Shown here: piece by piece, positions 5,922 to 38,122 of the stretch
How positions within the stretch are numbered: position 1 is the first letter of the stretch
Layout: each line of letters begins with the position of its first letter
From: Alphaproteobacteria bacterium
GTDB taxonomy: Bacteria > Myxococcota_A > UBA796 > UBA2385
NCBI GenBank assembly: GCA_020632755.1
Contig: JACKEY010000009.1
Coordinates: 63,332 to 127,331 of the forward strand
Reading direction: 5' to 3'
DNA: 64,000 nucleotides
Notes under the pieces: generated by a model
Seen by the model: only the letters and a program-made list of their open reading frames with translations
What the model was told of the DNA's origin: nothing
The model's database searches: none
Made by a program: the position numbers and the translations under genes

Positions 5922-6044
5922 TCGCTCCTCCCGGGCGCAGGGGTGGCTTCCCTGTTCACAGTATAGACACTGGAGCGGGACTGGCGAGTCCTTCCTGGCC
6001 GCCGCCCGCTGGCGCTCCGTCCCCCCGCCCCGGACAGCCCCCCG

Positions 6045-8963: not shown

Positions 8964-9815
8964 TCAAGCCTGGTGTTCGAAATCACCTGAAGGTTCTGCC
9001 GGAGAGAGCGCTCGCTGCTGGGCTCCCAGCGCCTCGATGGCGTCCGCGCAGCGCCGGGCGGCGGCCTTCCAGGCCTTGGGATCCTCCGGACGGTCGCGCA
9101 GCTCGCCGAAGTCCACCGGTGGCCCGAAGACCACGTCGAGGGGGTGGTTGGCCGGGTCCCCGAAGTTCTTGCGCATCTCGGCGAACAGATCGTTGCTGGC
9201 GCCCAGCACGAAGATCGGGATCACCAGCACGTCGGGGCACTGGAGCGCCACCAGGCCGACCCCCCGGGTCAGGCGCGTGAGCCGGTAGGGATCGCCCGTC
9301 TTGTTCCGGGTGCCTTCGGGGTGGATGCCGACCACCGTGCCGGGCAGCTGCAGCTCGGCCACCAGCCGCTCGAGCGCGTATTCGTTGAAGGCCATGCCCT
9401 CGCGGCTGCGCAGGATGGGCGGGAACATCGACATGCCCGACATCAGCAGGTTGAGCGGCGGGCCGAGCGGGTGGTCGTAGAAGAAGGTCGAGCGGACCGG
9501 GAACAGCACCCGGCGCGACAGGCGCGTGTGCCGGAAGGTGACCGCCATCACCTGGAAGAAGTCGAAGAAGCTGCGGTGGTTGGCGACCAGCACCACGCGG
9601 CTGTCGGCCGGCAGGTCCGCGACGTGGTGGAGCCCCGTGATCCGCATGCGGCGGCTGCTGGCCGCCCAGGTCATGAAGATCATGAACGTGGAGTTCCACG
9701 CCTTGGCCCAGAAGCCCAGGTGGCGCACGAACAGGTCGGCCAGCGAGAAGGCCGCCCGCTCCATGGGCTGGAGCACGGCGCGCTGCTGGGGGGTGGGCGG
9801 AGGGGGTGCGGTCAT
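8964..9815 (-). CDS. lysophospholipid (1-acyl-sn-glycerol-3-phosphate) acyltransferase family
   Basis: NHRSFFD (HX4D acyltransferase motif) and PEGTRNKTG block. Confidence 0.75.
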   Translation of the reverse strand: MTAPPPPTPQQRAVLQPMERAAFSLADLFVRHLGFWAKAWNSTFMIFMTWAASSRRMRITGLHHVADLPADSRVVLVANHRSFFDFFQVMAVTFRHTRLSRRVLFPVRSTFFYDHPLGPPLNLLMSGMSMFPPILRSREGMAFNEYALERLVAELQLPGTVVGIHPEGTRNKTGDPYRLTRLTRGVGLVALQCPDVLVIPIFVLGASNDLFAEMRKNFGDPANHPLDVVFGPPVDFGELRDRPEDPKAWKAAARRCADAIEALGAQQRALSPAEPSGDFEHQA

Positions 9816-9924
9816 CGACGGTCTCCTCGGCTAACCAGCCGTCTGCTCCCCGTGCCTCCCGGCGCTACACTGGCGACCTCGCCCGTCCTCCTCCGCACTC
9901 CCCACCGCCCTCCACCGAGCCTCC

Positions 9925-11697
9925 GTGCACGTCACCCCCGTCCACGATGACGTGGCGCCGCCGCTGGCAGACGGTCGCTACCGGCTGATCGGGGTCCTGG
10001 GCGCGGGCGGCATGGCCACCGTCTACAAGGTGTGGGACAGCCGGCTGCAGGTGGCCCGCGCGGTCAAGCTGCTGGCACCGGCCCTGGCCCGCAGCCCCCG
10101 GACGCGCGAGCGCTTCGAGAGCGAGGCCCGCCTGATGGCCCGGCTGCACCACCACAACATGGTGACCGTGCACGACGTCGGCCACGACCCCGGCGGCGCC
10201 GAGGGCGATCGCGCCTGGATGGTGATGGAGCTGCTCACCGGCGGCAGCCTGGCCGACCGGCTGCTCACCGACGGCCCGATGGCCCCGTCGCGGGCCTGCC
10301 AGGTCTGCCACGACGTGCTGCTGGCGCTGCAGGTCGCCCACGACGCCGGCGTCGTGCACCGGGACATCAAGCCCCACAACATCCTGCTGGCCGGCGACGG
10401 CACGCCCAAGATCACCGACTTCGGCATCGCGCGGGCCAACAACCGCAACATCTCGCTGACCCGCACGGGCGCGGTGATGGGCACCTGGGCCTTCATGGCC
10501 CCCGAGATCCGCAGCAACGCCAAGCAGGCCGACGTGCAGTCCGACCTGTACGCGATGGGCGCGACCCTCTACATGATCGCGACGGGCCGCCAGCCGCTGG
10601 ACCTGCAGGCCAGCAACGTCCGGGACCACATCCTGGGCGATCTGCCGCCGGCCCTGCGCACCGTCATCGAGCGCTCCACCGAGTACCTGCCCCAGGACCG
10701 CTACGGCTCGGCCCGCGAGATGGCCGCCGACCTGCTGCCCCTCGTCACGACCCTGGCCGACCTGCCGGCCCCCGAGGTGGAACCTGCTCCCGACTTCGGG
10801 CCCGACTCCGCGCCCGTGCCCGATCACCCGACCACGCTGCTCGGGGACAGCGATCTGCCGCCCGACAGCGACGACGACGAGAGCTCGGCCGAGGCGCCCG
10901 CGGACGAACGAGGCGCGGCCCCGCTCCAGCCGCCGCCCTCGCCGGCGGATGGCCTCCTCGCGGTCGACGAGCCGTCGCACACCATGGTCCCGCCCGAAGG
11001 CCTGGCCGAGCCGCTGCCTTCGGCGAGCTCGCTCGCGCCCCCGCCGAGCCGTGACACCTTCCTGTCGGCAGACCTGGACGACGAGCTGCCCGCGCCCACG
11101 GCCGGCGGGCGCCGCATGTGGGTCCCGGCCCTGGCCGCCCTGCTGCTGGTCGGAGGGGTCGGCGGCATCTGGTGGAACAGCCGCTCGACCCCAGGGGAGG
11201 AGGGAGCCGCGCCGGTCGAGGCGCCGGCCACCGTGACGGCCGAGGGCGTGCGCCGGAAGGACCCGCCGTTGGCGGGAATCGCGGGGGAGGAGGCGGCTGC
11301 GGGAGAGGCGGCTGCGGGAGAGGCGGCTGCGGGAGACGCGGCTGCCAGCGAGGCGCCCGATGCGACGGTGCCCGCCGAGGCGGCCCCTGCGGCCGTGCCT
11401 CGGGAGACGGCTCCTGCCGCCGCGCCGCGCGAGACGGCCCCGCGGGAGCCGGCCGCGCCGGAGCCCGAGCCGGGCCTGCTGCGGATCAACAGCCTGCCGC
11501 CCGCCCAGGTGTCCATCGATGGCGGCCCGCTGCGCGACACGCCGATCCGGGACGGCGTGTCGCTGCGCCCGGGGACGCACCGCCTGCGGTTCGTCGATGC
11601 GTGGGGCACCGAGCGCACCACCTCCGTGACCATCCAGGCCGGCAAGGCCCAGGTGGTCTGCTGGGACATCGAGGCCGACGCCGCCTGCGCCCGATAG
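9925..11697 (+). CDS. Ser/Thr protein kinase with a Pro/Ala-rich linker, TM segment and C-terminal PEGA-like domain
   Basis: GAGGMATVYK, AVK, HRDIKPHNILL, DFGIAR and APE motifs. TM segment WVPALAALLLVGGVGGIWW. C-terminal LLRINSLPPAQVSIDGGPLRDTP...GTHRLRF is PEGA-like. GTG start. Confidence 0.9.
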   Translation: MHVTPVHDDVAPPLADGRYRLIGVLGAGGMATVYKVWDSRLQVARAVKLLAPALARSPRTRERFESEARLMARLHHHNMVTVHDVGHDPGGAEGDRAWMVMELLTGGSLADRLLTDGPMAPSRACQVCHDVLLALQVAHDAGVVHRDIKPHNILLAGDGTPKITDFGIARANNRNISLTRTGAVMGTWAFMAPEIRSNAKQADVQSDLYAMGATLYMIATGRQPLDLQASNVRDHILGDLPPALRTVIERSTEYLPQDRYGSAREMAADLLPLVTTLADLPAPEVEPAPDFGPDSAPVPDHPTTLLGDSDLPPDSDDDESSAEAPADERGAAPLQPPPSPADGLLAVDEPSHTMVPPEGLAEPLPSASSLAPPPSRDTFLSADLDDELPAPTAGGRRMWVPALAALLLVGGVGGIWWNSRSTPGEEGAAPVEAPATVTAEGVRRKDPPLAGIAGEEAAAGEAAAGEAAAGDAAASEAPDATVPAEAAPAAVPRETAPAAAPRETAPREPAAPEPEPGLLRINSLPPAQVSIDGGPLRDTPIRDGVSLRPGTHRLRFVDAWGTERTTSVTIQAGKAQVVCWDIEADAACAR

Positions 11698-11706
11698 ACT
11701 GACCGG

Positions 11707-13014
11707 GTGCGACCTGTCCTTCCCTTCCTGCTGACCCTGGTGCTGGGGTCCGGCGCGGCCCATGCCGCGGACGTGGTGCTGCACGACGGCGTGCAGCCCG
11801 ACGCGGCCCGCGTGGCCCTGGCTGCCGTGCCCGACCTGTCGGCCTCCGCCACCCTGGTGACCCCGACCGGCCTGACCGCCACGCTGCGTCCCGCCCTGCC
11901 CGGCCCCGGCCAGCTGCGTCTGTGCGACGGCCCGCCGCTCACCGCCGCCGCGCTGACCGCCGCCGGCCGCGAAGCCGCCGGCCACGTCGCCTACTTCGAG
12001 TTCGACCAGGCCGCGGGCATCCTGGACGGCGTGCTGCCGCGGCTGGTCTGCCTGGACCACGCGGTCGACCCCCAGGAAGCCGGCCGCACCTGGTTCCTGC
12101 GCGGCTACATCGCCCACGAACAAGGCCAGGACGACGTCGCCCGTCGGGCCTTCCGCCAGGCCCTGCTGTTCTCGCCGGAGATGCCGTGGGACGGCGACTA
12201 CCCCGACAGCGGCCGCCCCCTGCTCGAAGACGCGCGCCAGGCGCTGACCGATCAGCAGCCCCTGACCCTGCTGCCCGCCGCCGACGGCGCGACCGTCTGG
12301 CTGGACGGCCGTCAGGTCGACCCCAGCACGCCCCTGTCCATGGCCCCCGGCGAGCACCTGCTGCAGGTGTCCACGATCCCGATGCTGACCCTGGCGGTGG
12401 ACGCCGGGGCCGGCGCCGACCGCCTGCTGGTCCCGAACCTGGTCGACGACGCCGTCGTGCACCAGGTCGACGGCAGCCGCGGGCGGGCGCGGATCGACGC
12501 TGCGCTGGGCCCGGCGCTGGCGTCCGACGATCGGCTGATCGTCGTGGCCGGCCAGACGGTGTGGGTGCGGTCACCGGATGGGGCCTGGAGCCCCGCCGGA
12601 GCCTCGGCCCCGGCGACGACCGCGACCGTGCAGCCCGACCCGGTGGCGCCGCCCGCCGACCCGCCGCCGGCGGACGACCCGCCGTCCCGCCGCCGCAGCG
12701 GTCCGGGCGCGCTCGGGTGGTCTGGCGTCGGGCTGGCCGTGGCCGGTGGCGGGGTCATCGCCGCCGGACAGGTCGTCGGTCGGTCCGCAGTGTCCGACGC
12801 CCAGACCGCCACCACCGACGGCGACGGCACCGCCTGGAGCCAGGCCGCCTCCCGCTACGACACGGCCGAGCTGCTGCTCCCCATCGGCTACGCGGCTGCC
12901 GGGGTCGGCGGAGCGCTGCTGGTCACCGGCATCGCGCTGGACCACGACGGCCCCACCCTCGCTCCGCTGCTCGGTCCGGGCATGGCGGGCCTGCGCGCCG
13001 AGGTGCCCTGGTGA
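11707..13014 (+). CDS. secreted protein with a C-terminal TM anchor, hypothetical
   Basis: Signal peptide MRPVLPFLLTLVLGSGAAHAADV. C-terminal hydrophobic segments. Starts 10 nt after the kinase stop. Confidence 0.6.
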   Translation: MRPVLPFLLTLVLGSGAAHAADVVLHDGVQPDAARVALAAVPDLSASATLVTPTGLTATLRPALPGPGQLRLCDGPPLTAAALTAAGREAAGHVAYFEFDQAAGILDGVLPRLVCLDHAVDPQEAGRTWFLRGYIAHEQGQDDVARRAFRQALLFSPEMPWDGDYPDSGRPLLEDARQALTDQQPLTLLPAADGATVWLDGRQVDPSTPLSMAPGEHLLQVSTIPMLTLAVDAGAGADRLLVPNLVDDAVVHQVDGSRGRARIDAALGPALASDDRLIVVAGQTVWVRSPDGAWSPAGASAPATTATVQPDPVAPPADPPPADDPPSRRRSGPGALGWSGVGLAVAGGGVIAAGQVVGRSAVSDAQTATTDGDGTAWSQAASRYDTAELLLPIGYAAAGVGGALLVTGIALDHDGPTLAPLLGPGMAGLRAEVPW

Positions 13015-14723
13015 TCCTCCTCCTCCTGGTGACCGGCTGCCTCCCTCCCCTGCCCGCGGGCCCCGGGGCCGGCGACGGCGACACCGACGTCTCCGACAGC
13101 GGCATCTCCGACGGTGGGGACACCGACGCGGACACCGACGCAGACTCGGACACCGACACCGACACCGACACCGGTGCCGACGACGCCGACGGCGACGGCT
13201 TCTCCGTGCCGGACGACTGCGACGACACCGACCCGGACGTGAACCCCGACGCCACCGAGATCTGCGACAACGGCATCGACGACAACTGCGACGGCCGGGC
13301 CACGCCCTGCCAGTTCGACGGCGACTACGGCGTGGACGACGCCGTCGGCACCGTCAGCGGCCAGACGACCAACGGCTACGTCGGCTCGTCGCTCGCGGTC
13401 GTCGTCATGGACACCGGCCCGGCCGTCGCCGTGGGCGCCGGGTGGGACAACCAGGGCGTCGTGTGGTTCTTCCAGGACTTCTCGCCGTCCGACGGCTCGG
13501 CGGACCTCACGACGGCCGACGCGACCCTGTCCCTGCGCGGCGAAGCCACCGGCGATCAGAGCGGCCGGGCCATGGCCGTCGCCGATGTCGACGGCGACGG
13601 CCACCCCGACCTGCTCGTCGGCGGCTACGCCAGCACGCTGCTCGGGTCCATCGCCACGACGCGGACCACCGGCCCCATCGTGCACATCGTCCACGGCCCG
13701 ATCCCCTCGTCGGCCGACGACCTGTACACCGCGGCCGATGTGCGCATCACCGGCGGCACCACCGCGACCGCGACCTACGGCCACATCGAGCTCGACGTGG
13801 CCGACGTCATGGGCCTCCGCCGGGCCGACGTGATCCTGAGCTTCCACACCTTCTCGGATGCCGCCGGCACCAACGCCCCGGTCAACCGGGGCGGGCTGGC
13901 CGTGCTGGCCGACCGACCGGCCGGCGAGCTCGATCTCGAGACCGACGCCGACCTGCGCATCGAAGGCGAGTCGCTGGGGGACGGCCTGGGTGCGGGCCTG
14001 GCCACCGTCGACGTCGATGGGGACGGTATCGACGACATCGTGGTGGGCGGACACGGGGCCGGCGGCGCCGACAGCTCGTCCCACGGCACCGTCTACGTGG
14101 TCGACGCGTCCGACTACGAAGGCGACGGCAACATCGTGTCCATCGACGATATCGCCGATCTGACCATCGAAGCCAGCGGCGCCACCGACCGGCTGGGCTT
14201 CACGGTGGCCGACGTCGGCGACGTGGACGGCGACGGCCGCGAGGACATCGCCATCGGCGCCGACGGCAGCATCTACGGCCAGCCCGACGCCGGCGAGGTG
14301 CTGGTCTTCCACACCGGCGGGCTGCCGGCGAGCGGCGCGCTGACCGCCGGCGACGCCGACTTCCGCCTGCAGGGCCAGGAGTCGGGCCGCTCGGGCGGGC
14401 GGCTCGGCTTCGAGATCGTGCCCGCCGGCGACGTCGATCACGACGGCCACGACGACTTCTACGCCAGCGGGATCTGGGAAGAGGTCGCCGGGACCGCGTC
14501 GGGCCGGGTCCACCTGGTCCCCGGCGGCCTGACCGGCCTGCTCGGCGTCGACGACGACGGGCTGCTCGCCACCTTCAGCGGCGCGGCCGGCACCGACTTC
14601 GGCGTGTCCATGATCAGCAACCGCGATCTGACCGGTGACGGCGTGGCCGATCTGGCCGTCGGCGCCTGGTCGTGGAGCACCGGGCGCGGCCGGGTCTACG
14701 CCTTCGCGAGCCCGACCTGGTGA
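13011..14723 (+). CDS. FG-GAP/integrin-alpha repeat lipoprotein with an Asp/Thr-rich linker and a Cys-rich metal-binding-like motif
   Basis: GTG overlaps the upstream stop (GTGA). VILLLLVTGC lipobox. DxDxDGxxD repeats (ADVDGDGHPDLLVGG, VDVDGDGIDDIVVGG, GDVDGDGREDIAIGA, GDVDHDGHDDFY, DLTGDGVADLAVGA). DCDDTDPDVNPDATEICDNGIDDNCDG motif. Confidence 0.8.
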   Translation: MILLLLVTGCLPPLPAGPGAGDGDTDVSDSGISDGGDTDADTDADSDTDTDTDTGADDADGDGFSVPDDCDDTDPDVNPDATEICDNGIDDNCDGRATPCQFDGDYGVDDAVGTVSGQTTNGYVGSSLAVVVMDTGPAVAVGAGWDNQGVVWFFQDFSPSDGSADLTTADATLSLRGEATGDQSGRAMAVADVDGDGHPDLLVGGYASTLLGSIATTRTTGPIVHIVHGPIPSSADDLYTAADVRITGGTTATATYGHIELDVADVMGLRRADVILSFHTFSDAAGTNAPVNRGGLAVLADRPAGELDLETDADLRIEGESLGDGLGAGLATVDVDGDGIDDIVVGGHGAGGADSSSHGTVYVVDASDYEGDGNIVSIDDIADLTIEASGATDRLGFTVADVGDVDGDGREDIAIGADGSIYGQPDAGEVLVFHTGGLPASGALTAGDADFRLQGQESGRSGGRLGFEIVPAGDVDHDGHDDFYASGIWEEVAGTASGRVHLVPGGLTGLLGVDDDGLLATFSGAAGTDFGVSMISNRDLTGDGVADLAVGAWSWSTGRGRVYAFASPTW

Positions 14724-14914
14724 GCGGGCTGCTGTGGCTGCTGGGCTCCGTCGTCCTGGCCAAGGGCGTCGCGCCCGACAGCCCGGCGCGCGTGGCCGCC
14801 CCGAGCGCTGGCACGCTCATGCGCTGGGCCGCGACGCAGGACCAGACGGTGAAGCTGCTGACGCCGGACGGGGTGAAGTAGCGGTGGGAGGGGCGACGGG
14901 GGCCGACCGGTGGG

Positions 14915-15409
14915 TCAGGGGCCGACCGGACGCCGCAGCGAGGCCGGATCGCGCCGATACTGCGCATCCCGCTCGTCGGAGAAGCCTGAGGTGGCGTGGG
15001 GCAGGTAGGCGCCGAGGGCCTGGAGCACGGCATCTTCGCCGCCGAACTGGACCGGGAGGCGCAGGTGCTTGCCGTCGGCCATCCGCAGCAGGATCCACGA
15101 GGTGGCCTTGTTGCGCACGACGAAGGCGTAGATCCACACGATCTCCTGGGGCCGCTCCCGCAGCAGCTGCAGGGGCCTGGCCTTGCGCGGATCGCCGAGT
15201 GCAGGGATGAAGAACAGCAGCCCCAGCAGGCCGGCACCGGCACACAGCACCCAGAGGTTCCGTTCCGGCGGGGACAGCGCGAAGAACGACGCCGCCGCCA
15301 GCGACAGGAACAGGACCGGCACGACGATGGCCGTCTTCCGGTAGCTTCGCTTGCGGTCGACGACCTGCTGCACGAGCAGGGTCTCGAGCTGTGGAGGGAG
15401 CTCACTCAC
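14915..15409 (-). CDS. hypothetical membrane protein (2 TM)
   Basis: 164-aa ORF with GC-rich third positions and two hydrophobic helices. No family recognised. Confidence 0.55.
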   Translation of the reverse strand: MSELPPQLETLLVQQVVDRKRSYRKTAIVVPVLFLSLAAASFFALSPPERNLWVLCAGAGLLGLLFFIPALGDPRKARPLQLLRERPQEIVWIYAFVVRNKATSWILLRMADGKHLRLPVQFGGEDAVLQALGAYLPHATSGFSDERDAQYRRDPASLRRPVGP

Positions 15410-15551
15410 GGGCCCGCCAGAGGTGGACGTTGGTCTCCGCCCCTATCGGGGCCGCGCTCTCGCCGTCCAGACCTGGCAAGTCGGCCCCAGGCCCGCCCGC
15501 CGCATGGGTCTACGCTCAGCGGATGAAGAGAAGGCCCCTGGCCGCTCTACC

Positions 15552-15612
15552 CGAGACGCAACGAAGCCCGCCGGAGCGGGCTTCGAGCCGAGAGAGCGCT
15601 CATCAGCTGCAA
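15552..15612 (+). repeat. direct repeat, left copy (att-like)
   Basis: CGAGACGCAACGAAGCCCGCCGGAGCGGGCTTCGAGCCGAGAGAGCGCTCATCAGCTGCAA, identical to 23252-23312. Contains a 9-bp-stem hairpin at 15563-15584. Confidence 0.95.
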
Positions 15613-15653: not shown

Positions 15654-17975
15654 ATGGACTTGGCTGGCACCTTTGGATGCGTCTTCACTGCTGTCTTCCT
15701 GGCAGCGGTGTTTGGGGTCGCGATCTTCTTGGGCGCTCGCAGCCGCAAGCAGGAAGAGACCTGGGACGAGTTGGCCGACTCCCCGGGTCCTCCTCCCAGC
15801 TTCCCGACGAAGCAGCAGGCTGCTCCAGCCCGGCCCAGGACGCGACCAGCATCCGTCACCCGCAGCCCGCAGACCGCCAACGCCCGGTGGACGGGCGCCG
15901 GAGAGTCCATCAGCGTGGCCGGCCGCACCTTCGACGCCCCCTGGGTGTGGTTCGGAACCGAGCTGAAAGCAGCAGGCGACCGGTACGGGACCGAGGCGGC
16001 CCTCGTGAATCCTCGCTTGCCTGTCGACTTCGCGGCGCCCGATTCCCGGGGCGAAGGCATGGGCTACTGGCCTCGATACGCCGACATCAGCCCCCAGTGT
16101 CGAGCGGCTTACCTCCAGTGGCTTGCCGACGGTCGCCAGGGCCCACACGCCAACATCGGCTACGTGTTCCTGTACTTCTACGGCATCGAGCGGCGGTTGT
16201 TGGTCGACCTCCTCCCCAAGGGCCACGAACAACCAGAGGTGGTGCGTCTCCTGGCGGAAGTGCGCCGGCTGCGTGAGCTCTACAAGGAGAACGCCTCGTT
16301 CGCGAGCTACTCGGGAGGGTTGCTCGACTTCGTCCAGGCGGGTGACCACGCGCGGCAGGACCCGACTCAGCTTCGCCCCCCTCTGCACAGCTCTCACTGG
16401 GACCTCCCTCTCGGCCTTCGCGTTGCGCTGGGCAAGCAGTTGTCCAGCGGGCAACCCCTGACCGCTGACTGGGCACTCGCCTGGGGCCTGCACCACTTCT
16501 CGGTCGGCAAGCGCACTCCCGTGGATCGGTGTCGGGACGAGGTCATCGCCTTGTTCAGGATCCGGTTCGAGGAGCGCTACCCCGGGGGGATGAAGGTCAA
16601 GGCTCCGAAGCGTCGGATCAAGGTGGAGTACCGCTCCGCCAGCCCGTCGTTGCTCCAGTCCGCGTCCTCGCTGGAGATCGACCTCCCGGATGTGGGGGCG
16701 CTCTCGGCGCCTCTCGAGAAGGTCCACGCCGTGCTTGACGCCTGTTGCGATGAGTTGGCTTCGTACAGCCGTTGGGTTGGAAGGAACCCCGACCAGGTGG
16801 GCAGCCTGCAGGCAGCGGCCCTGCTCCCTCCAATCTTGATCGCCACCTTGGACACACCATCGCTCTCCGGGCTTCGGTCGTGGTTGGCTGGTCTGGACTT
16901 GAATGGAGGAGATGTCGGAGCCCAGGAACTGCTGGGTGTCTGGCAGCCAGCGTCGGGAAAGTGGAGCAAGAAGGACTCGGTCCAGCTCTGCCAACTGCTC
17001 GATGGCCATGGTGTCGGGGTCGAGCCGGATGCCCGATTCGGGGGCGCCCGCCTGGACAATGCGAACCGCCTGGTTCTGTTCCGCCTCGAATCCGGTGCGC
17101 CGGACACGCCCTCGAACGCCTACCAGTCAGCCACACTGGCGCTCCACCTCGCTACCGCGGTTGTGCATGCCGACGGAGTGATCGACACCCAGGAGGAGGA
17201 GGGGCTCGAACGATTGCTGGAACGGAACCTCCACCTTTCCTCACCCGAACGAACCCGCCTCCGAGCACACCTGCGCTGGCTACTCCTCGACCACCCCGGG
17301 ATGGGGGGCCTGAGCACGCGACTCAAGGCCCTGGCTCCGAGCGACCGGACCGCACTCGCCAAGACAATGGCCGCCATGGCAACGGCAGGCGGTGGCGCGG
17401 GGCCTTCCGAACTCAAGCTCCTCGAGAAGATCTACAAGCACCTCGGCCAGGACCCGACTCAGCTGTATGAGCATGTCCATCAGGCCGCCGCGGCCCCGGC
17501 ATCGGACCAGGGGCCCATCACCGTCCGCGAAGGACGCCAGGGCCCTGTCGGCCACAGCATCCCAGGCCCACCTCAGACCAGCAGCCCTCCCAGAGCCAAG
17601 CCGGGATTCGAGCTCGACCTCGAACGCGTGGCCCACCGCGTCAAAGAAACCGAGCAGGTCGCCAGGATACTCGGGGACATCTTCGACAGCGACGACCTGC
17701 ACGGGGAACCCGAGCGCACCTCGCCGGACGAGCCCGCCGTGGAAGGCGTCGCCGGATTGGACGAGGCACATTCTGCGCTCGTTCGGATCCTGGTGACGCA
17801 GCCGACCTGGCAGCGCGAAGATGCAGAAGCAAGAGCCGATGCCCTGGGGTTGTTCCTCGGCGGCGCGATCGAGACCATCAACGATGCCACCTACGATCAC
17901 TGTGACGCCCCACTCGTCGAGGGCGACGAAGAACTCGAGATCGACCCTCAGGTCGCTGCGGAGTTGTGCCCATGA
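15654..17975 (+). CDS. sngA: TerB-N / TerB-C domain protein with an N-terminal TM helix (Shango SngA-like)
   Basis: ATG at 15654 after GAGGGAGG. TM segment GTFGCVFTAVFLAAVFGVAIFLGA. ...WPRYADISPQCRAAYLQWLADGR...GYVFLYFYGIERRLL matches the TerB N-terminal domain pattern. A central TerB-like helical region (ATAVVHADGVIDTQEEEGLERLL) and an acidic C-terminal domain follow. Confidence 0.75.
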   Translation: MDLAGTFGCVFTAVFLAAVFGVAIFLGARSRKQEETWDELADSPGPPPSFPTKQQAAPARPRTRPASVTRSPQTANARWTGAGESISVAGRTFDAPWVWFGTELKAAGDRYGTEAALVNPRLPVDFAAPDSRGEGMGYWPRYADISPQCRAAYLQWLADGRQGPHANIGYVFLYFYGIERRLLVDLLPKGHEQPEVVRLLAEVRRLRELYKENASFASYSGGLLDFVQAGDHARQDPTQLRPPLHSSHWDLPLGLRVALGKQLSSGQPLTADWALAWGLHHFSVGKRTPVDRCRDEVIALFRIRFEERYPGGMKVKAPKRRIKVEYRSASPSLLQSASSLEIDLPDVGALSAPLEKVHAVLDACCDELASYSRWVGRNPDQVGSLQAAALLPPILIATLDTPSLSGLRSWLAGLDLNGGDVGAQELLGVWQPASGKWSKKDSVQLCQLLDGHGVGVEPDARFGGARLDNANRLVLFRLESGAPDTPSNAYQSATLALHLATAVVHADGVIDTQEEEGLERLLERNLHLSSPERTRLRAHLRWLLLDHPGMGGLSTRLKALAPSDRTALAKTMAAMATAGGGAGPSELKLLEKIYKHLGQDPTQLYEHVHQAAAAPASDQGPITVREGRQGPVGHSIPGPPQTSSPPRAKPGFELDLERVAHRVKETEQVARILGDIFDSDDLHGEPERTSPDEPAVEGVAGLDEAHSALVRILVTQPTWQREDAEARADALGLFLGGAIETINDATYDHCDAPLVEGDEELEIDPQVAAELCP

Positions 17976-19285
17976 AGACCCGACAGCTTCGTCCCCGAGA
18001 GCGGGACGCCATCCTGCAGTCCTTGCGCGCCGGAGTCGTGCCGCGTGTCGGCCAACAGCACATCCAGGTGGGCCGCGCCCGAGAAGTCGAGGCTGTGGTG
18101 CGTGACATCGATCGCATCGCCGACGGGGGCTCGGCGATTCGCTTCGTCATCGGTGCGTACGGCTCCGGCAAGACCTTCTTCCTGCAGCTCGTGCGGTCGA
18201 TCGCCATGGAGAAGAAGCTGGTCGCCGCACACGCCGACCTGACTCCCGACCGACGCCTGCAGGCGTCGGGAGGCCAGGCGCGCAACCTCTTCGCGGAGCT
18301 GATGCGCAATGTGTCGACGCGCTCGAAGCCGGACGGTGGGGCCCTCCCGAGTGTCGTCGAGCGTTTCGTGTCGAGTGCCCTCCAGGAGGCGCGGGCGGAG
18401 GGTGTCCCGCCCACGGCGGTGCTCCATCGTCGGCTCGAAGCCTTGTCGGAGCTCGTCGGGGGATACGACTTCGCCCACGTCGTCGAGCGGTACTGGACAG
18501 GCCACGACACCGGCAACGACAGGATGAAGGCGGATGCAGTCCGCTGGCTTCGAGGCGAATTCACAACGAAGACGGACGCCCGCAAGGCGCTGGGCGTGCG
18601 GACCATCGTGGACGACAACAACGTCTACGACCAGTTGAAGCTGATGGCAGTCTTCGTTCGGCTGGCAGGGTACTCCGGCCTGCTCGTCGGACTCGATGAG
18701 ATGGTCAACCTCTTCAAGCTCTCCCACACCGCATCGCGCAATGCCAACTACGAACAGATCCTCCGCGTCTTGAATGACAGCCTTCAAGGGTCGGCCGCCG
18801 GGCTGGGGTTCGTGATGGGCGGCACCCCGGAGTTCCTGATGGACACGCGTCGGGGGCTTTACAGCTACGAGGCGCTCCAGACCCGACTCTCCGAGAATCG
18901 GTTCGCCACCGGCGAGCTCGTGGACATGAGTGGTCCCGTGATTCGGCTCGCGAGCCTGTCACCAGAGGATCTCTTCGTCTTGCTGACCAAGCTCCGAAGT
19001 GTCTCCGCGGACAGGGAGACCGGGACCGACCTTGTTCCGGACGAGGCCCTCAAGGCGTTCATGGTCCATTGCCACGAGCGCATCGGGGAGGCGTACTTCC
19101 GCACACCGCGCAACACCATCAAGGCCTTCGTGCAGATGTTGGCCGTCCTGGAGCAGAACCCTGGCACCTCGTGGCAAGACCTCCTCGGCAACGTGGACAT
19201 CTCCGCTGACGAAGGCGGCGCTGATGACCTCGCGCTCGACGACGACGCCCAAGGAGACGACGAGCTCTCCTCGTTTCGGCTGTAG
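17972..19285 (+). CDS. sngB: DUF2791 / BrxD-like P-loop ATPase (Shango SngB-like)
   Basis: ATG overlaps the sngA stop (ATGA at 17972-17975). ...ILQSLRAGVVPRVGQQHIQVGRAREV...FVIGAYGSGKTFFLQL (Walker A). LLVGLDEM (Walker B-like). Confidence 0.75.
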   Translation: MKTRQLRPRERDAILQSLRAGVVPRVGQQHIQVGRAREVEAVVRDIDRIADGGSAIRFVIGAYGSGKTFFLQLVRSIAMEKKLVAAHADLTPDRRLQASGGQARNLFAELMRNVSTRSKPDGGALPSVVERFVSSALQEARAEGVPPTAVLHRRLEALSELVGGYDFAHVVERYWTGHDTGNDRMKADAVRWLRGEFTTKTDARKALGVRTIVDDNNVYDQLKLMAVFVRLAGYSGLLVGLDEMVNLFKLSHTASRNANYEQILRVLNDSLQGSAAGLGFVMGGTPEFLMDTRRGLYSYEALQTRLSENRFATGELVDMSGPVIRLASLSPEDLFVLLTKLRSVSADRETGTDLVPDEALKAFMVHCHERIGEAYFRTPRNTIKAFVQMLAVLEQNPGTSWQDLLGNVDISADEGGADDLALDDDAQGDDELSSFRL

Positions 19286-19288
19286 GCC

Positions 19289-21529
19289 ATGAGCGCGGGA
19301 ACGTCCTCGGCATTCGAGCGCCTGCACCCGGACATCCAGCGCCTCCTCTGGCGGTGGGAGTGGCGAGAGCTCAACGATGCCCAGGAGCGCGCCGTGGCGC
19401 CGATCCTGGCTGGCGAACAGGACGTGGTCATCGCCGCCCCTACCGGCGGAGGCAAGACCGAGGCGGCCTACCTTCCTCTGCTGACGAGGATCCTCAATGC
19501 TTCCGAGCCCGGGTTGCGCGCCTTGTATGTCGCCCCGCTCAAAGCGCTTATCAACGATCAGCATCGGCGCCTGGAGGCGATGACCGAGGCGCTGGAAGTT
19601 CCTGTGCACAAATGGCACGGCGATGTGCCAAGTGCTCGAAAGCGGAAGGTGACCCAGACTCCCAGCGGCGTCTTGCTCATCACTCCAGAGTCACTGGAGG
19701 CCATCTTCGTCAACCATGGCACTCGAGTGGCTCAGCTCTTCGCGGGCCTCTCTCATGTCGTCATCGACGAACTCCACTCGTTCTTCGGCACGGAACGCGG
19801 CAGGCAACTGCAGAGCCTCCTGCACCGCGTGGAGCTGGCTGCAGGTCGACGCGTTCCGCGCGTCGGCCTCAGCGCCACCTTGGGTGATGCGACCCTTGCG
19901 GCCACATTCCTTCGACCGGGACAGGCATTGGGGGTAGAGATCATCGAGGGAGGTGCGGCGACCCACGAGCTTCGGCTTCAAGTGCGAGGCTATCGCCACC
20001 GGGCTCCGCGGCTGTCGAAGGCCGAGCTTCGCGAGCTCGATGAGCACGGTAGGGAAGCAGTCCTTGAGGATGCCGTGGACGGCGACGTGCTGGACATCGC
20101 AGACCACATGTACGGCGCCCTGCGAGGCAAGGACAACTTGGTGTTCGCGAACCGAAGGGCCGAGGTCGAGCTGTTCGCCGACCTGCTCAGGCGTACCTCG
20201 GAGCGGCAACGGGTCCCGAACGAGTTCTGGGCCCACCACGGGAGTCTGTCGCGCGAGCTCCGAGAAGACGCGGAGCGAGCGCTCAAGGAATTGGGGGTAG
20301 CCACGGCCGTGTGCACATCGACGCTCGAAATGGGGATCGACATCGGCACGGTGCACAGCGTGGCGCAGGTAGGCTGCCCGCCCTCGGTTGCAGCGATGCG
20401 TCAGAGACTCGGCCGGTCGGGCCGCCGCGGAGACCCGTCAATTCTCCGCATCTACGTGCAAGAGGCCGAGATCACGGAACGGAGCGCCCCGGCGGACCGC
20501 CTTCGACCGGAGCTTGTTCAGGCCGTGGCAATGGTCCGCCTCATGGTCCGAGACAGGTTCTGCGAGGCACCGAGGACGGGTGCCCTGCACCTGTCGACCA
20601 TGGTGCAGCAGCTGCTCTCGCTCATTGCACAGCACGGGGGTGTTCGGGCAGCCGCAGCGTTCCGCGCCCTATGCGTTGAGGGTCCCTTCGAGGCGGTCGA
20701 CCAGGCAGACTTCATGCTCTTCCTCCGAGGGCTTGGTGCGGCGGAGCTGATCGAGCAGGACTCCACTGGGCTGCTGCTTCACGGTCGCGTCGGAGAGCGA
20801 GTCGTCAACCACTACTCCTTCTACGCTGCCTTTCGGAGCCCCGAAGAGTACCGCCTGGTTTGCAGGGGCCGAACGCTGGGGTCGCTTCCCATCGACTCCC
20901 CCCTCTATGAAGGCGCCTATGTCGTGTTCGGGGGCCGACGCTGGAAGGTGGAGTCCGTCGATCAGGAGCGGCGGGTGATCCATCTGTTGCCTTCCAGTGC
21001 TGGCCGCCCACCCAAGTTCGGTGGTGGCTCGGGGGCACTGGTGGACGACGAGGTGCGCCGAGAAATGCTCCGCGTCTTGACGGATGGCTCGGTGAACCGC
21101 TTCGTCGACCCGACAGGGCTGGACCTGTTGGAGGAAGCCCGCGCCGAGTTCAGCCAGTTGGGACTCACCGGCAACGACATCCTGCGAGATGGCTCGGATG
21201 CGACGATCATCTGCTGGGTGGGCGACCGAGCGCTGGACACAATGGCGGTCCAACTCAAGGCCGAAGGCATCGACGCCGCCAGGCATGGCATCGCAGTCTG
21301 GGTTGCGAAGACCTCGCCGGAAGACCTCACCGCAGTTGCCCGTACCCTCGCCGCCAGGGGTCCCGCAGACGCAGTCGAGCTGGCGCGTGGCGTCGAGAAC
21401 AAGGCCGTCGAGAAGTACGACGAGTTCGTGCCGCACGAGTTGCTGTGCCGGGACTACGCCGGCCGGGCGCTGGATGTGGTGGGGGCCTGGGGGGTTTGGA
21501 AGCGGCTCGCGGCGTCCACCGCCAGCTGA
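19289..21529 (+). CDS. sngC: Lhr-like DEAD/DEAH-box superfamily 2 helicase (Shango SngC-like)
   Basis: Starts 4 nt after the sngB stop. AAPTGGGKTEAAYLPLL (motif I), VIDELHSF (DExH), SATLG (motif III), TSTLEMGIDIG and RLGRSGRRG (motifs V/VI). Long C-terminal domain. Confidence 0.85.
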   Translation: MSAGTSSAFERLHPDIQRLLWRWEWRELNDAQERAVAPILAGEQDVVIAAPTGGGKTEAAYLPLLTRILNASEPGLRALYVAPLKALINDQHRRLEAMTEALEVPVHKWHGDVPSARKRKVTQTPSGVLLITPESLEAIFVNHGTRVAQLFAGLSHVVIDELHSFFGTERGRQLQSLLHRVELAAGRRVPRVGLSATLGDATLAATFLRPGQALGVEIIEGGAATHELRLQVRGYRHRAPRLSKAELRELDEHGREAVLEDAVDGDVLDIADHMYGALRGKDNLVFANRRAEVELFADLLRRTSERQRVPNEFWAHHGSLSRELREDAERALKELGVATAVCTSTLEMGIDIGTVHSVAQVGCPPSVAAMRQRLGRSGRRGDPSILRIYVQEAEITERSAPADRLRPELVQAVAMVRLMVRDRFCEAPRTGALHLSTMVQQLLSLIAQHGGVRAAAAFRALCVEGPFEAVDQADFMLFLRGLGAAELIEQDSTGLLLHGRVGERVVNHYSFYAAFRSPEEYRLVCRGRTLGSLPIDSPLYEGAYVVFGGRRWKVESVDQERRVIHLLPSSAGRPPKFGGGSGALVDDEVRREMLRVLTDGSVNRFVDPTGLDLLEEARAEFSQLGLTGNDILRDGSDATIICWVGDRALDTMAVQLKAEGIDAARHGIAVWVAKTSPEDLTAVARTLAARGPADAVELARGVENKAVEKYDEFVPHELLCRDYAGRALDVVGAWGVWKRLAASTAS

Positions 21530-21868: not shown

Positions 21869-22090
21869 TCACTGGTGGTGGGTGGTGTCGGCAGCCCGGA
21901 GAAGCCCGGACCACCGCTTCTCGCGAAGGCGGTAGCTGTCGCCGCGGATGGTGACGTCGTGGCTGTGGTGGAGCAGGCGATCGAGGATCGCGGTGGCGAC
22001 GACGCTGTCGCCGAAAACGGTGCCCGACTCGGCGACGTTGCGGTTGCTGGTGACCAGCGTGCTGCCGCGCTCGTAGCGGCGGCTGACCAG
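21869..22090 (-). pseudogene. IS21-family istB (helper ATPase) C-terminal fragment
   Basis: LVSRRYERGSTLVTSNRNVAESGTVFGDSVVATAILDRLLHHSHDVTIRGDSYRLREKR is the conserved IstB C-terminus. The N-terminal two thirds and istA are absent. Truncation sits at the hairpin CCCCCTCC-cttgcga-GGAGGGGG (22091-22113). Confidence 0.8.
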
Positions 22091-22623
22091 CCCCCTCCCT
22101 TGCGAGGAGGGGGTCGAGCTCAGTCTCAAAGCCGAGATCCGGCCGATGGCCCCAAGCGGTGACGATCAGCGGTACATGCTGGTGGTCGACCTGTACAAGA
22201 CCACTGCCGCCGACGGCAAGGAGTTCGTGACCCGCGGAATTCCAGACGTCGGCTACGAGCTCTACTACAAGTCCGAACTCTGTGGTGGGCTGGTCCTTGA
22301 GGTTCGATCGAAGGCCATTGCGAGCGAGTAGAGCAGCCGTTGGCCGCGAAATCGCCGGGGAGGCGGGCACCTGACCAACAGCCTCCCCCGCCTCCTGTGT
22401 AGCGAGATTCGGCGCGCCATCAGTGACCCACCAACCCCCTCCCCTCCAGCACCCAGCTCAGCCCCAACAGGTTGAGCACGGCCCCCAGGATCGCCACCGC
22501 CACCGCGTGCGCGACCGGTGACCGGGCAAGGGTGCGCACGAGCTCCCAGCTGTCCTTGCGCTGCTCGACGCGGGTATGGTCGACGGCGAGAGGGCTCGCT
22601 CGGAGAACACGGTCAGGTGAGCC

Positions 22624-23168: not shown

Positions 23169-23251
23169 GAACAGCGTAGCACTGGCGCTGAGGCCGCAAA
23201 CAGTGGAGGTTCATGCGTCCGACCGCCAACCACTCCCCTCCCCAACCCACT

Positions 23252-23312
23252 CGAGACGCAACGAAGCCCGCCGGAGCGGGCTTCGAGCCGAGAGAGCGCT
23301 CATCAGCTGCAA
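23252..23312 (+). repeat. direct repeat, right copy (att-like)
   Basis: Identical to 15552-15612. Confidence 0.95.
23263..23284 (-). terminator. hairpin GAAGCCCGC-nnnn-GCGGGCTTC, 65 nt downstream of the stop of the 23350..24480 gene
   Basis: Perfect 9-bp stem and 4-nt loop, positioned as an intrinsic terminator for the minus-strand lipoprotein gene. No U-tract. Confidence 0.45.
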
Positions 23313-23349: not shown

Positions 23350-24480
23350 TCAGAGGTTGTACATCATGTACTGCAGCACCTGCAGCACGTCGCTGTTGGC
23401 GTTCTTGGCGACGCGGAAGGTGCTGTAGACCACCTTGCCTTCGCCGGCGCCGAAGCTGACCAGCATGGGGGCGGTGGGGATGTTCCGGGTGACGGTGCCC
23501 TGGCGGTAGGTCACGTCGCCGCGCAGGTGCACGCTGACGGAGTCGCTGGCGGTCTCGATGGGCGGCCAGACCGGCAGGTCGTACTCGACCTCGATGTAGT
23601 CCTTGTCGAGCCAGGCGCCCATGGACGCGTCGCTGACGGCGGCGCTGACCAGGTCGTACTCGCCGAGCTGGGCGGCGTCGGGGACGTTGTCGTCGCCGAC
23701 GAAGTCCAGGCGGTCGGGGTAGGCCTGCTCGACCACGTCGTAGGCCCAGTCGCTGGCGTAGATGCTGCCGCCGCCCTCGACGTAGGCGCGGATGTTGTCC
23801 ATCACCTCTTCGGACACGGGGATGGTGCCGGTGTCCACTTCTTCGCCACCGCCCAGGCCGGGCTCGTCCTCGTCGTCCTGGACCTCGTAGATCAGGCCCT
23901 CTTCGACATGGCCGCCGTTGAAGAAGATGATGTCGTAGGACTGCATGGCCGTCAGGTCGGTCAGGAAGCCCTCGACCTCGCTGCGGTCCAGCCCGTCGAT
24001 CTCGGTGTAGTTGGCGAAGCCCATGTTCGACAGCACCAGCTCGAAGCTGTCGTAGCTGCCGGAGATGATGGCCACGTCGATGGTCAGCGGGTCGAAGCAG
24101 TCCGGCTCGGCCAGGACCTTGTCTTCGCCGTCGCCCAGCCACAGGCCGTACTTCTGCTGGTCGCCCAGCGTGTCGCCGCCGAACTGGATCAGCACGTCGT
24201 ACTCGGCTTCACCGGGCAGCTCTTCCAGCAGGAAGTAGCCGTCGCGGTCGGTGTAGGCGATGCGGGTCTCGATGACGCGGTCGCCGCCCCGTTCCTTGAC
24301 GTGGGTGTAGACCGTCGCGTCCTGGAGCCAGGTCTTGCCCGACGCATCGCAGACGCGGCCGGAGATCTGTCCCGGGCTGATGACAGGGTTGCTGTCGTCG
24401 ATGCGGGTGAAGGTCTTGTCCTGGGTGCAGCCGGCGGCCAGGGTGGCGAGGCCGGCGGCCAGAAGGAAGCGAGTGCGCAC
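23350..24480 (-). CDS. lipoprotein, CarboxypepD_reg-like N-domain plus GATase1-like/ThuA-like domain (paralog A)
   Basis: MRTRFLLAAGLATLAAGC lipobox. Similar along its full length to 25296..26363 (shared blocks CFDPL.IDVAI, MGFANY, FFNGGH.EEG, YASDW.YDVVEQ, RLDFVGDD.VPDAAQ.GEYDL, DLPVWPP, LQY..Y.L). Fold assignment is inference. Confidence 0.75.
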   Translation of the reverse strand: MRTRFLLAAGLATLAAGCTQDKTFTRIDDSNPVISPGQISGRVCDASGKTWLQDATVYTHVKERGGDRVIETRIAYTDRDGYFLLEELPGEAEYDVLIQFGGDTLGDQQKYGLWLGDGEDKVLAEPDCFDPLTIDVAIISGSYDSFELVLSNMGFANYTEIDGLDRSEVEGFLTDLTAMQSYDIIFFNGGHVEEGLIYEVQDDEDEPGLGGGEEVDTGTIPVSEEVMDNIRAYVEGGGSIYASDWAYDVVEQAYPDRLDFVGDDNVPDAAQLGEYDLVSAAVSDASMGAWLDKDYIEVEYDLPVWPPIETASDSVSVHLRGDVTYRQGTVTRNIPTAPMLVSFGAGEGKVVYSTFRVAKNANSDVLQVLQYMMYNL

Positions 24481-24549
24481 GTTGGCCTCCGAGAGGGGTG
24501 CGGAACGGATGCATTGTAGTCGCGCCAGACCGGGATGGTCAACTGCGTG

Positions 24550-25299
24550 TCACAGGGCGGAGACCACGTACTGGACGGCCTGGAGGAAGTCGGCGGGGGC
24601 ATCGCCCGAGAGCCGTGGAACGCTGTGCACGATCCGGCCCTCGCCCAGCCGGGCCGAGGTCAGCAGCGGGGCGGCGGGCAGCTCGCCCGCGGGCAGCACG
24701 ACGCGGGCCACCAGGTGCACGCCGACCGCATCGCCGGCGCGCTCGATCGGCGCGCTGCCAGCACCCAGCGACAGGGCCTCGATGTCGTTGGCGCCGAGCA
24801 GCGCCGACAGGCTGGCGTCCGCGATCGTGGCGTCCACCGTCTGCGCCGGCGCGACCTCGGCGGCCCCGGCGACGGACTCCTCGCCGACGAAGTCCAGCAC
24901 GTCGGGCGCGACGCCGTGCACGACCTCGTAGCTGCGGCCGGTCGACAGCAGGATGCCGCCTCCCTCCACCCATGCCGCCAGCGCCGCCAGCCCGGGCCCG
25001 CTGGCCTCGCCCCACAAGACGCCCTCCTCCGACAGCCCCTCGTCCAGGACCACCAGCTCGAAGGCGTCGAGGGAACCCTCCAGCGCCCCCGCGGTCGCGA
25101 CCGGGTCGCCGCCGTCGACGATGGCGAAGGCGCTGAGCCCGAGCGCGGCCATGCCGTCGAAGGTGTCGACCCCGCCGTCGCCGTGGACGAGCAGGGTGTC
25201 GAGGTCGACGACCTGCTGCCCCCCGCCCGTGTCGTGGGGCTCCGCGCCCGAGTCCAGCGGCTCCGAGCCCGCGGCGCAGGCCAGGAACAAGGCGATCAC
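24550..25299 (-). CDS. shorter divergent paralog lacking the N-terminal domain (possible lipoprotein; start uncertain)
   Basis: GTG overlaps the stop of the upstream paralog (GTGA). VIALFLACAAG... Retains blocks WVEGGG, DVLDFVGEE and LQAVQYVVSAL. The signal peptide would be unusually short. Confidence 0.5.
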   Translation of the reverse strand: MIALFLACAAGSEPLDSGAEPHDTGGGQQVVDLDTLLVHGDGGVDTFDGMAALGLSAFAIVDGGDPVATAGALEGSLDAFELVVLDEGLSEEGVLWGEASGPGLAALAAWVEGGGILLSTGRSYEVVHGVAPDVLDFVGEESVAGAAEVAPAQTVDATIADASLSALLGANDIEALSLGAGSAPIERAGDAVGVHLVARVVLPAGELPAAPLLTSARLGEGRIVHSVPRLSGDAPADFLQAVQYVVSAL

Positions 25300-26363
25300 A
25301 GCGTGTAGAGCAGGTACTGCAGGCTGCTCTGCAGGTCGGCGCTGGCGTTGCGGGCGACCCGGAACGAGCTGTAGATGACGCGGCCCTCGCCCTGGCTGAA
25401 GCTGACCAGCAGCGGGGCGGACGGCAACGTCTGCACGACCGTGCCCTGGCGCCAGCGCACGTCGCCGGAGATGTGCACGGACACGCCGTCGTCGACGGCG
25501 ATTACGGGCGGCCAGACGGGCAGGTCGAACTCGACCTCGACGTGCAGGCGGTCGAGGTACTCGGACAGCGCCACGTCGGAGACGGCGGCGTTGATCAGAT
25601 CGTACTCGCCGGTCTGGGCGGCGTCGGGCACGTCGTCGTCGCCGACGAAGTCGAGCCGTGCGGGGAACACCTGCTCGACGACGTCGTAGGACCAGTCGCT
25701 GGCGTAGAGCATGCCGCCCGCCTCGACGTAGGCGGCGATGTTGTCGGCGACGGCCAGGGCCACGTCTTCGCCGGTGCCGTCGGCCGCCGGGTAGATGATG
25801 CCCTCCTCCAGGTGGCCGCCGTTGAAGAAGACCACGTCGTAGCGGGACAGATCGCTGGTCAGGAAGCTGGTCAGCTCCGCCTCGTCCAGCCCGTCGATGA
25901 CGTCGTAGTTGGCGAAGCCCATCGCCCGCAGCACGGCCTCGAAGTCGTCGTAGGCGCCCTGGACGATGGCCACGTCGATCTGCAGCGGGTCGAAACAGTC
26001 GGGCTCGTCCAGGATCAGGAGCCCGCCGCCTTCGAGCCACAGCCCGCCGTGTTCCTGGTCGTCGAGGTGCAGGCCGCCGACCTGGACGTACACGTCGTAG
26101 GCCTGCTCGCCGGGGAGCTCGTCGAGGACGTAGCGGCCATCGGGATCGGTGTAGACCTGCCGGGTCTCGACCACCCGCCCGTCGTCGTTGAGGATGTTCG
26201 TGTAGACCAGCGCGTCCTGCTGCCAGGTGCGGCCGTCGGCCGAGCAGACGCGGCCTTCGATCTGGCCGTCCGCCGCTGCGGCCGGGGCGGGCGGGTCCTT
26301 GTCGAGGCCGTACTCTGGGGTGCAGGCGAGGAGCAGGACGGGCAGGAGAGCGAGCGAGCGCAT
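25296..26363 (-). CDS. lipoprotein, CarboxypepD_reg-like N-domain plus GATase1-like domain (paralog B)
   Basis: Trimmed to MRSLALLPVLLLAC (lipobox). Colinear with paralog A. Confidence 0.75.
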   Translation of the reverse strand: MRSLALLPVLLLACTPEYGLDKDPPAPAAAADGQIEGRVCSADGRTWQQDALVYTNILNDDGRVVETRQVYTDPDGRYVLDELPGEQAYDVYVQVGGLHLDDQEHGGLWLEGGGLLILDEPDCFDPLQIDVAIVQGAYDDFEAVLRAMGFANYDVIDGLDEAELTSFLTSDLSRYDVVFFNGGHLEEGIIYPAADGTGEDVALAVADNIAAYVEAGGMLYASDWSYDVVEQVFPARLDFVGDDDVPDAAQTGEYDLINAAVSDVALSEYLDRLHVEVEFDLPVWPPVIAVDDGVSVHISGDVRWRQGTVVQTLPSAPLLVSFSQGEGRVIYSSFRVARNASADLQSSLQYLLYTL

Positions 26364-26436
26364 GGGGGGCCTCCGGGCAAGACGAAACCGTGCCGCTGCA
26401 CGGTAGGCGGCCCCGGGGCCGATTGTCAACGCGATG

Positions 26437-26961
26437 TCAGGAGCGTGCAGGGACGGCGGCGGCGACGAAGGAACCGCTGCGTCCGCCGTGCTTCTCGAGC
26501 AGCCGGATGTCCTGGATCTGCATGCCGCGGTCGATGGCCTTGACCATGTCGTAGACGGTCAGGCAGGCCGCGGTGACGCAGGTGAGCGCTTCCATCTCGA
26601 CCCCGGTCCTCCACCGGGTGCGCACGGTGGCGACCACCCGGATGCGGCCGTCGAGGGGGGCCACGTCGACCTCGACCCCGTCGATGGGCAGGGGGTGGCA
26701 GAGGGGGATGAGGTCGGCCGTGCGCTTGGCGGCCTGGATGCCGGCGAGGCGGGCGATCTGCAGCACGTCGCCCTTCTTGCTGCGGCCTTCGAGGATGGTG
26801 GCCAGGGCGTCGGGGGACAGGCGCACGAAGCCTTCGGCCCGGGCCATACGATCGCTGTCGGCCTTGGCGCCGACATCGACCATGCGCGGGTTCCCGTCGG
26901 CGTCGAGGTGGGTGAGCCCGCCGACACCGGGCGCCGGATCGCCGCGAGTGGGGTCGCCCAT
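26437..26961 (-). CDS. moaC: cyclic pyranopterin monophosphate synthase MoaC
   Basis: [47 protein letters not shown]...LT.YDM.KA, all typical MoaC blocks. Confidence 0.9.
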
Positions 26962-33619: not shown

Positions 33620-33722
33620 GGCGGTGTCGCCGGGATGGGGCGTCGACCCTTCAATGTGGGCGCCGGCCTTGACGGCTGCCACTTGGTGAGCATGAGGGGC
33701 AAGTCCGCTTCGAGGAGGACTT

Positions 33723-38080: not shown

Positions 38081-38110
38081 ATCCCGTTCGGGATACTATT
38101 GACGTGTCAA
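38081..38110 (+). promoter_or_regulatory. operator-like palindromes upstream of the serine recombinase gene
   Basis: ATCCCG-tt-CGGGAT (38081-38094) and TTGAC-gt-GTCAA (38099-38110), preceded by the direct repeats GCATCCCATT x2 (38058-38077), in an AT-richer patch. Confidence 0.35.
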
Positions 38111-38122
38111 GCGGGAGTCAAG

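Follow-up and report, generated by a model that had tools for sequence, protein, structure and literature searches.

Three co-oriented genes at positions 15654-21529 of the 64,000-nucleotide stretch of bacterial DNA analysed here (the window) raise the question of whether they encode the anti-phage system Shango (SngABC), how they came to lie where they do, and whether the membrane anchor on the first protein sets this copy apart from the rest of its family. An earlier note, made from the sequence, had read the trio as a Shango-type module and as island cargo, with the membrane tether on its TerB subunit making it a useful variant. Our analysis indicates that the trio is, very probably, an intact and horizontally acquired Shango on a 7.7-kb, direct-repeat-bounded island that lacks a recombinase. 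As such, it is an ordinary, canonical copy of a known three-gene system, and its anti-phage role in this host is a prediction made from sequence.

The genes sngA, sngB and sngC are adjacent on the plus strand, in the order A-B-C. The first, sngA (15654..17975), encodes a 773-aa TerB_N/TerB/TerB_C protein, and its start is placed at the ATG at 15654, with a ribosome-binding site (GAGGGAGG) five bases 5' of it. The stop codon of sngA overlaps the ATG of sngB (CCC-ATGA-AG, 17972-17975), while the stop codon of sngB (19283-19285) is followed by GCC and then by the ATG of sngC at 19289; these are the ATGA overlap and the 3-nt gap that had been described for three tightly coupled genes. The same A-B-C order was found in all 82 Shango loci that we sampled from other genomes, comprising 80 species-level loci found via SngB and two copies in relatives. 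The best PADLOC models for the three proteins are SngA, SngB and SngC, each by a wide margin, and the Pfam domains are those expected, in agreement with the proposal that this combination of TerB protein, ATPase and helicase is Shango. None of the three reading frames is truncated, and together they retain every invariant family residue and catalytic motif.

Shango has been shown to act against phages in E. coli (Millman et al. 2022) and in P. aeruginosa PA14 (Johnson et al. 2023). The window copy shares with these validated systems the same three proteins, the same order and the tight coupling, with full-length PADLOC matches, and both are tied to mobile DNA. It differs from them in its host, a 73% GC uncultured bacterium unlike the hosts of the validated systems, and in lying on a 7.7-kb repeat-bounded island without a recombinase.

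SngA was assigned by PADLOC, Pfam, its ribosome-binding site and AlphaFold modelling, and its best PADLOC model is SngA with E=7.3e-88. The TerB N-terminal signature, TerB-like core and acidic C-terminal domain anticipated by the earlier note were all recovered by Pfam. TerB_N occupies residues 83-290 (15900..16523, plus strand; PF13208, E=5.6e-52, profile positions 3-207 of 207) and holds the motif GYVFLYFYGIERRLL at about residues 169-183. TerB follows at residues 498-604 (17145..17465, plus strand; PF05099, E=1.9e-07), where Foldseek matched the TerB-fold structures 2h5n and 2ou3 with probabilities of 0.99-1.00. TerB_C lies at residues 641-771 (17574..17966, plus strand; PF15615, E=5.7e-23), and Asp and Glu make up 23% of it. 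The AlphaFold model of SngA (104 homologues in the alignment, mean pLDDT 86.7) shows a large, well-folded body at residues 78-613 and a C-terminal TerB_C module at residues 704-771. Against the PDB, Foldseek with full-length SngA matched the TerB fold only, with no significant match for TerB_N, the middle region (residues 290-498) or TerB_C; a Pfam search of the middle region at E-values up to 1 likewise gave no match, as did PDB sequence searches with SngA and with SngB.

The second gene, sngB (17972..19285, plus strand), was assigned by PADLOC, Pfam and motifs as encoding a 437-aa ATPase of the BrxC/BrxD family (ORC/Cdc6-like AAA+). The SngB model covers positions 1-438 of its 439 profile positions at E=2.4e-180, against E=8.2e-42 for the second-best model, BrxD, and the Pfam family BrxC_BrxD (PF10923) matches with E=1.9e-152. 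The protein has an intact Walker A motif, GAYGSGKT (residues 61-68), and ends in an acidic C-terminal tail. The reading of this gene as BrxD/DUF2791-type with the Walker A sequence GAYGSGKT(F) is thus borne out by both family match and motif and, with TerB_N and TerB_C, all of the domains on which the earlier note had rested its case were recovered by Pfam and PADLOC.

The third gene, sngC (19289..21529, plus strand), encodes a 746-aa Lhr-core-like SF2 DExH helicase, assigned by PADLOC, phmmer, AlphaFold and Foldseek. PADLOC gave SngC with E=5.4e-262, against E=8.3e-123 for the second-best model, BrxHI, and Pfam recovered DEAD (8.5e-33) and Helicase_C (8.2e-14). The helicase motifs are present as I (APTGGGKT, 50-57), II (DELH, 160-163), III (SAT, 195-197) and VI (QRLGRSGR, 372-379), and all invariant columns of the family alignment are kept, including K56, D160, E161 and H163. 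The top PDB matches by phmmer are Lhr (5v9x and 7lhl) and MrfA (6znp). The AlphaFold model (57 homologues, pLDDT 90.8, pTM 0.88) matches the whole Lhr core with bound ssDNA in 5v9x (Foldseek E=2.9e-28, TMq 0.66, 809 alignment columns) and superposes on MrfA too, so that the description of gene 3 as an Lhr-type DExH helicase holds in both sequence and fold. SngC shares two RecA domains, a winged helix and a C-terminal domain with the Lhr core helicase of M. smegmatis (5v9x) and with MrfA/YprA (6znq), though at only 17-23% sequence identity. It lacks the long C-terminal extension of Lhr and the DUF1998 zinc module of MrfA, and its operon partners differ from theirs. Pfam and Foldseek found no nuclease domain in SngC, and a Pfam search of its C-terminal 347 aa at E-values up to 1 gave no match.

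The likeness of genes 2 and 3 to BrxD and BrxHI, which the earlier note had also remarked on, is seen in the second-best PADLOC matches and raises the alternative that the trio belongs not to Shango but to type 2 BREX (Pgl), as an orphan BrxD-BrxHI module. In type 2 BREX, these two proteins form a linked pair. BrxD is described as an ORC-Cdc6 AAA+ ATPase in tight partnership with BrxHI and is a proposed loader or activator of that helicase; BrxHI, an SF2 helicase, has a winged helix and a beta-barrel as well as a C-terminal domain like that of Lhr (PMC12839542). The SngC fold agrees with this description, and SngB with SngC, like BrxD with BrxHI, pairs a stand-alone ORC/Cdc6-like ATPase with an SF2 helicase. 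In bits, however, the SngB model scores about 4-fold and the SngC model about 2-fold higher than the BREX models (8e-42 for BrxD, 8e-123 for BrxHI), and the NCBIfam BrxD equivalog NF033438 reaches only 139.8 bits on SngB, below its cut-off of 350. No PglZ (PF08665) was found in the whole assembly, which is 82% complete, and PglZ, PglX and BrxC of type 2 BREX were absent from the window ORFs scanned. Where type 2 BREX has PglX, PglZ, BrxC and PglW, the window locus has instead a TerB_N/TerB_C partner, whose gene is translationally coupled upstream and defines Shango. With the BrxD equivalog below its cut-off and PglZ absent from the assembly, we reject a BREX fragment and regard the chance of this reading being right as negligible.

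Having identified the trio as Shango, we turn to its membrane anchor. SngA begins with MDLAGTFGCVFTAVFLAAVFGVAIFLGARSRKQEE, a strongly hydrophobic helix followed by basic residues. Hydrophobicity and AlphaFold place a transmembrane helix at about residues 5-27 (15666..15734, plus strand): residues 8-26 form a hydrophobic 19-mer with a Kyte-Doolittle mean of 2.54, and the model shows residues 4-40 as a helix. The sequence RSRK lies directly C-terminal to the transmembrane segment, and the positive-inside rule, taken by itself, predicts an N-out/C-in topology with the TerB domains in the cytoplasm. The helix leads into a disordered, Pro-rich tether at about residues 34-80 (15753..15893, plus strand), recognised by its low pLDDT (<50 at residues 36-72) and Pro content (9 Pro in 47 aa). 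The N-terminal helix and the Pro-rich character of the linker noted earlier therefore stand, although the linker is about 40-47 aa long and not roughly 60 aa. The N-terminus is kept in a homologue that is 63% identical (P0007).

Does this anchor make the window copy a special variant? Among the 74 complete SngA ORFs in the sample, 32 have one N-terminal hydrophobic helix before TerB_N, 16 have two and 26 have none; helices are thus present in 48 of 74 SngA proteins from other species, which runs against the view of the tether as a useful variant. An N-terminal hydrophobic helix is also found in 53 of the best 120 SngA database homologues, and both other Shango copies in related genomes have the anchored-SngA design. 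The SngA encoded on an E. coli IncFIA/IncFIB plasmid begins MELLKFLAAIFVIYLLFFRKKKRK, a hydrophobic helix followed by basic residues, and the 826-aa homologue from P. aeruginosa has two helices and then a PPP-rich stretch. The E. coli IncF-plasmid copy and the P. aeruginosa homologue therefore share the N-terminal helix and basic stretch of the window SngA, which has one helix where the Pseudomonas protein has two. At 773 aa, the window protein is also typical in length, as homologues range from 660 to 830 aa. Membrane-anchored SngA is the majority state of the family and not a special variant, and the impression that a tethered SngA is out of the ordinary is thereby corrected. Equally, the 35% of SngA proteins without a membrane helix mean that tethering cannot be essential to the core mechanism of the family.

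The surroundings of the trio bear on how it arrived. Its GC content is 66.0%, against 72.8% for the genome, which places it in the lowest 1.14% of equally sized genome windows. A 78-nt direct repeat lies to the left of sngA (15535..15612) and again to the right of sngC (23235..23312), at a spacing of 7,700 nt; the copies are 91% identical, with a 61-nt exact core (15552-15612 in the left copy), and the left repeat holds the hairpin GAAGCCCGC-CGGA-GCGGGCTTC. This repeat is present as two copies only in the 5.4-Mb assembly. Together, the copies bracket a 7.7-kb unit consisting of the trio and 1.7 kb of decayed sequence right of sngC. Within the decayed part lies the C-terminal stump of an IS21 istB gene (21869..22165, minus strand; PF01695, E=9.9e-21, profile positions 178-236 of 238), comprising its last ~60 codons; it has no other copy in the genome and is a mobile-element scar inside the island. 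On the left flank, a 176-aa ORF (14915-15442) gave no family matches and has almost no homologues in relatives. A conserved gene on the minus strand (23350-24549) ends 38 nt short of the right repeat, and 38 of 41 relatives have an orthologue of it. In one of these, G003, the orthologues of this gene and of the window gene at 8964-9830 lie about 110 bp apart, forming an empty site. The adjacency in G003 implies that everything from 9.8 to 23.3 kb is variable and that the Shango cassette is nested inside this larger region. The 61-nt repeat core shows only a 15-nt hairpin match at the equivalent position of the empty site in G003, a suggestive match that falls short of significance (E=0.56).

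The distribution of the system among relatives is patchy. A strong SngB was found in only 3 of 61 related genomes, and the Shango copies in relatives are as distant from the window copy as are copies from other phyla (SngA 37%, SngC 48-50% identity). In one relative, the Shango copy and the orthologue of the flanking gene are on separate contigs, and a SoFic-like gene adjoins the copy in relative G020. More widely, at least eight phyla have SngB homologues with 63-70% identity, enterobacterial SngB being only about 62% identical to the window protein, and SngB is encoded on 686 plasmids, most of them conjugative. The low GC, the direct repeat, the istB stump, the empty G003 site and the presence in 3 of 61 relatives uphold the proposal of island cargo over a syntenic core operon: the trio arrived by horizontal transfer.

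The same features weigh on the idea that the trio is a housekeeping module of the Ter type, acting in stress or DNA repair by combining TerB metal sensing with an Lhr-like repair helicase. TerB was first described in tellurite resistance, and both Lhr and MrfA are repair helicases, which lends this idea some plausibility. Such a module is, however, hard to reconcile with a patchy presence among relatives, a low-GC, repeat-bounded and IS-scarred context, wide carriage on conjugative plasmids, the SoFic-like neighbour in G020 and the published anti-phage activity of homologous trios, and we consider it highly improbable.

A different reading of the island is that it is eroding, with the trio a silent or decaying remnant whose open genes are no longer expressed or functional. 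The degenerate 1.7 kb right of sngC, with its istB stump, would fit such erosion, as would the lack of any recombinase between the two repeats; a scan found no promoter or terminator consensus either, its sigma-70 component being uninformative at 73% GC. Nevertheless, the three full-length frames, with every invariant residue and catalytic motif kept, and the preserved tight translational coupling make a remnant quite unlikely. An intact Shango that has travelled as a cassette remains the preferred reading, and the locus adds a case with clear boundaries in which Shango has moved, as a minimal 7.7-kb cassette, into a chromosomal site that is variable.

How would such a system work? We found no description of the Shango mechanism, and no point-mutant data, in the literature searched, and what TerB does is still described as unclear in a 2025 preprint. 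For the window Shango, we infer as follows which substrate is acted on, in what order the steps occur and what the membrane contributes. SngA would be held at the inner membrane by its single N-terminal helix and a flexible, Pro-rich tether of ~45 aa, so placing TerB_N, TerB and TerB_C on the cytoplasmic side, close to the membrane, as a possible sensor or scaffold. SngB, as an ORC/Cdc6-like AAA+ protein of the BrxD type, could by analogy use ATP to load or activate SngC. SngC itself would be a four-domain DExH translocase of the Lhr-core type, predicted by analogy with Lhr to move 3'-to-5' on single strands. Near the site of entry, it may then act on phage DNA or on RNA:DNA intermediates and directly block early replication or transcription, without the cell being killed.

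The last step sets this scheme against abortive infection, in which a membrane-anchored SngA effector would damage the membrane once SngB and SngC had sensed phage DNA. SngA is predicted to be membrane-anchored, no nuclease or other effector was found in SngB or SngC, and the short-SngC form of the window copy has no recognisable effector domain. There is also published precedent in Bunzi and Dionysus, whose TerB proteins have membrane or pore-forming components as neighbours and have been proposed to act in 'membrane surveillance'. BnzA of Bunzi and DinB of Dionysus, like the window SngA, bring a TerB-fold domain into a membrane-associated anti-phage system. In both of those systems, however, the partners of TerB are membrane or pore-forming proteins, and the BrxD-like ATPase, Lhr-like helicase, TerB_N and TerB_C of Shango are absent. 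Moreover, a single helix on a long disordered tether looks like an anchor and not a pore, and a helix is missing from 35% of SngA proteins. Liquid cultures of Pseudomonas were protected by Shango over a wide span of phage doses, a result that speaks against suicide at the population level and favours direct immunity over abortive infection. Abortive infection therefore appears unlikely.

A further observation on this point comes from other members of the family. In 14 of the 82 loci, SngC is fused to a DEDD 3'-5' exonuclease domain, which supports a nucleic-acid target and stands against a membrane-damaging effector. A tblastn search of the window for a separate exonuclease gene or its remnant found none (best E-value 1.2). 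The fusion is commoner with anchor-less SngA (10 of 26, against 3 of 48 with anchored SngA; Fisher p=0.001), an association that is confounded by phylogeny. A further reading, which we consider rather unlikely, is that the conserved anchor, disordered tether and cytoplasmic TerB domains put the helicase and its loader under the inner membrane to intercept entering phage DNA, and that anchor-less lineages compensate by fusing a 3'-5' exonuclease to SngC.

As a locus that standard defence-system annotation would call automatically, the window Shango is of limited value in itself. Its comparison with the family offers more: one or two N-terminal helices are present in roughly two thirds of SngA proteins, and a fused DEDD exonuclease in roughly one sixth of SngC proteins, and both observations could guide work on the mechanism of Shango. 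If the suggested compensation is true, there would be two mechanistic flavours of Shango, one of entry-site interception and the other of cytoplasmic degradation, and the window copy would represent the first type in clean form.

The Shango cassette of the window is nested in a larger variable region, since the stretch to its left (9835-15442), which encodes a Ser/Thr kinase, a TPR protein, a repeat-rich 686-aa protein and a 176-aa orphan ORF, is likewise absent from the syntenic site of the related genome G003. On the right, two tandem paralogues with a CarboxypepD_reg-like domain (23350-24549 and 25296-26558) share 58% identity and enclose a partial third copy; the equivalent site in the relatives G003, G011 and G020 carries one such copy each. 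The Shango copy of G020 (locus L011) is immediately preceded on its upstream side by a gene of the SoFic-like Fic-domain type (positions 5834-6922 of the locus; PADLOC 3.7e-47).

Further along the window, another Ser/Thr kinase (33696-34667) is matched by the PADLOC models mad6 (4.9e-51) and PD-T4-6 (4.4e-34). Its counterpart in G020 is 85% identical, so this kinase may have a housekeeping role instead of one in defence. A second low-GC island (37721-44903) encodes two recombination enzymes, one of the serine recombinase type (37721-38827) and the other a tyrosine integrase (39105-40223). After these comes a type II CBASS, whose components are an effector with a SAVED domain (40271-41404), a CD-NTase (41558-42616; PADLOC 1.4e-128), a Cap2 E1-E2 protein (42623-44371; PADLOC 1.3e-132) and a Cap3 JAB protein (44178-44903).

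Of the 82 Shango loci sampled, 14 have a 3'-5' exonuclease domain of the DEDD (RNase_T) type fused to the C-terminus of the helicase SngC (L018, L023, L024, L025, L032, L034, L042, L044, L045, L048, L049, L060, L076 and L092). The fusion is commoner where SngA lacks a membrane helix (10/26, vs 3/48 with the helix; Fisher p = 0.001), an enrichment that is confounded by phylogeny because Actinomycetota supply most such loci.

Outside the window, a stretch of contig C36 of the same assembly (~207.4-211.0 kb) has two ATPase regions that match BrxC/BrxD weakly (E = 2.8e-13 and 1.6e-07), followed by a helicase that shares 34% identity with SngC. Several relatives show tandem arrangements of a similar kind, and this ATPase-helicase set is possibly a different, conserved module.
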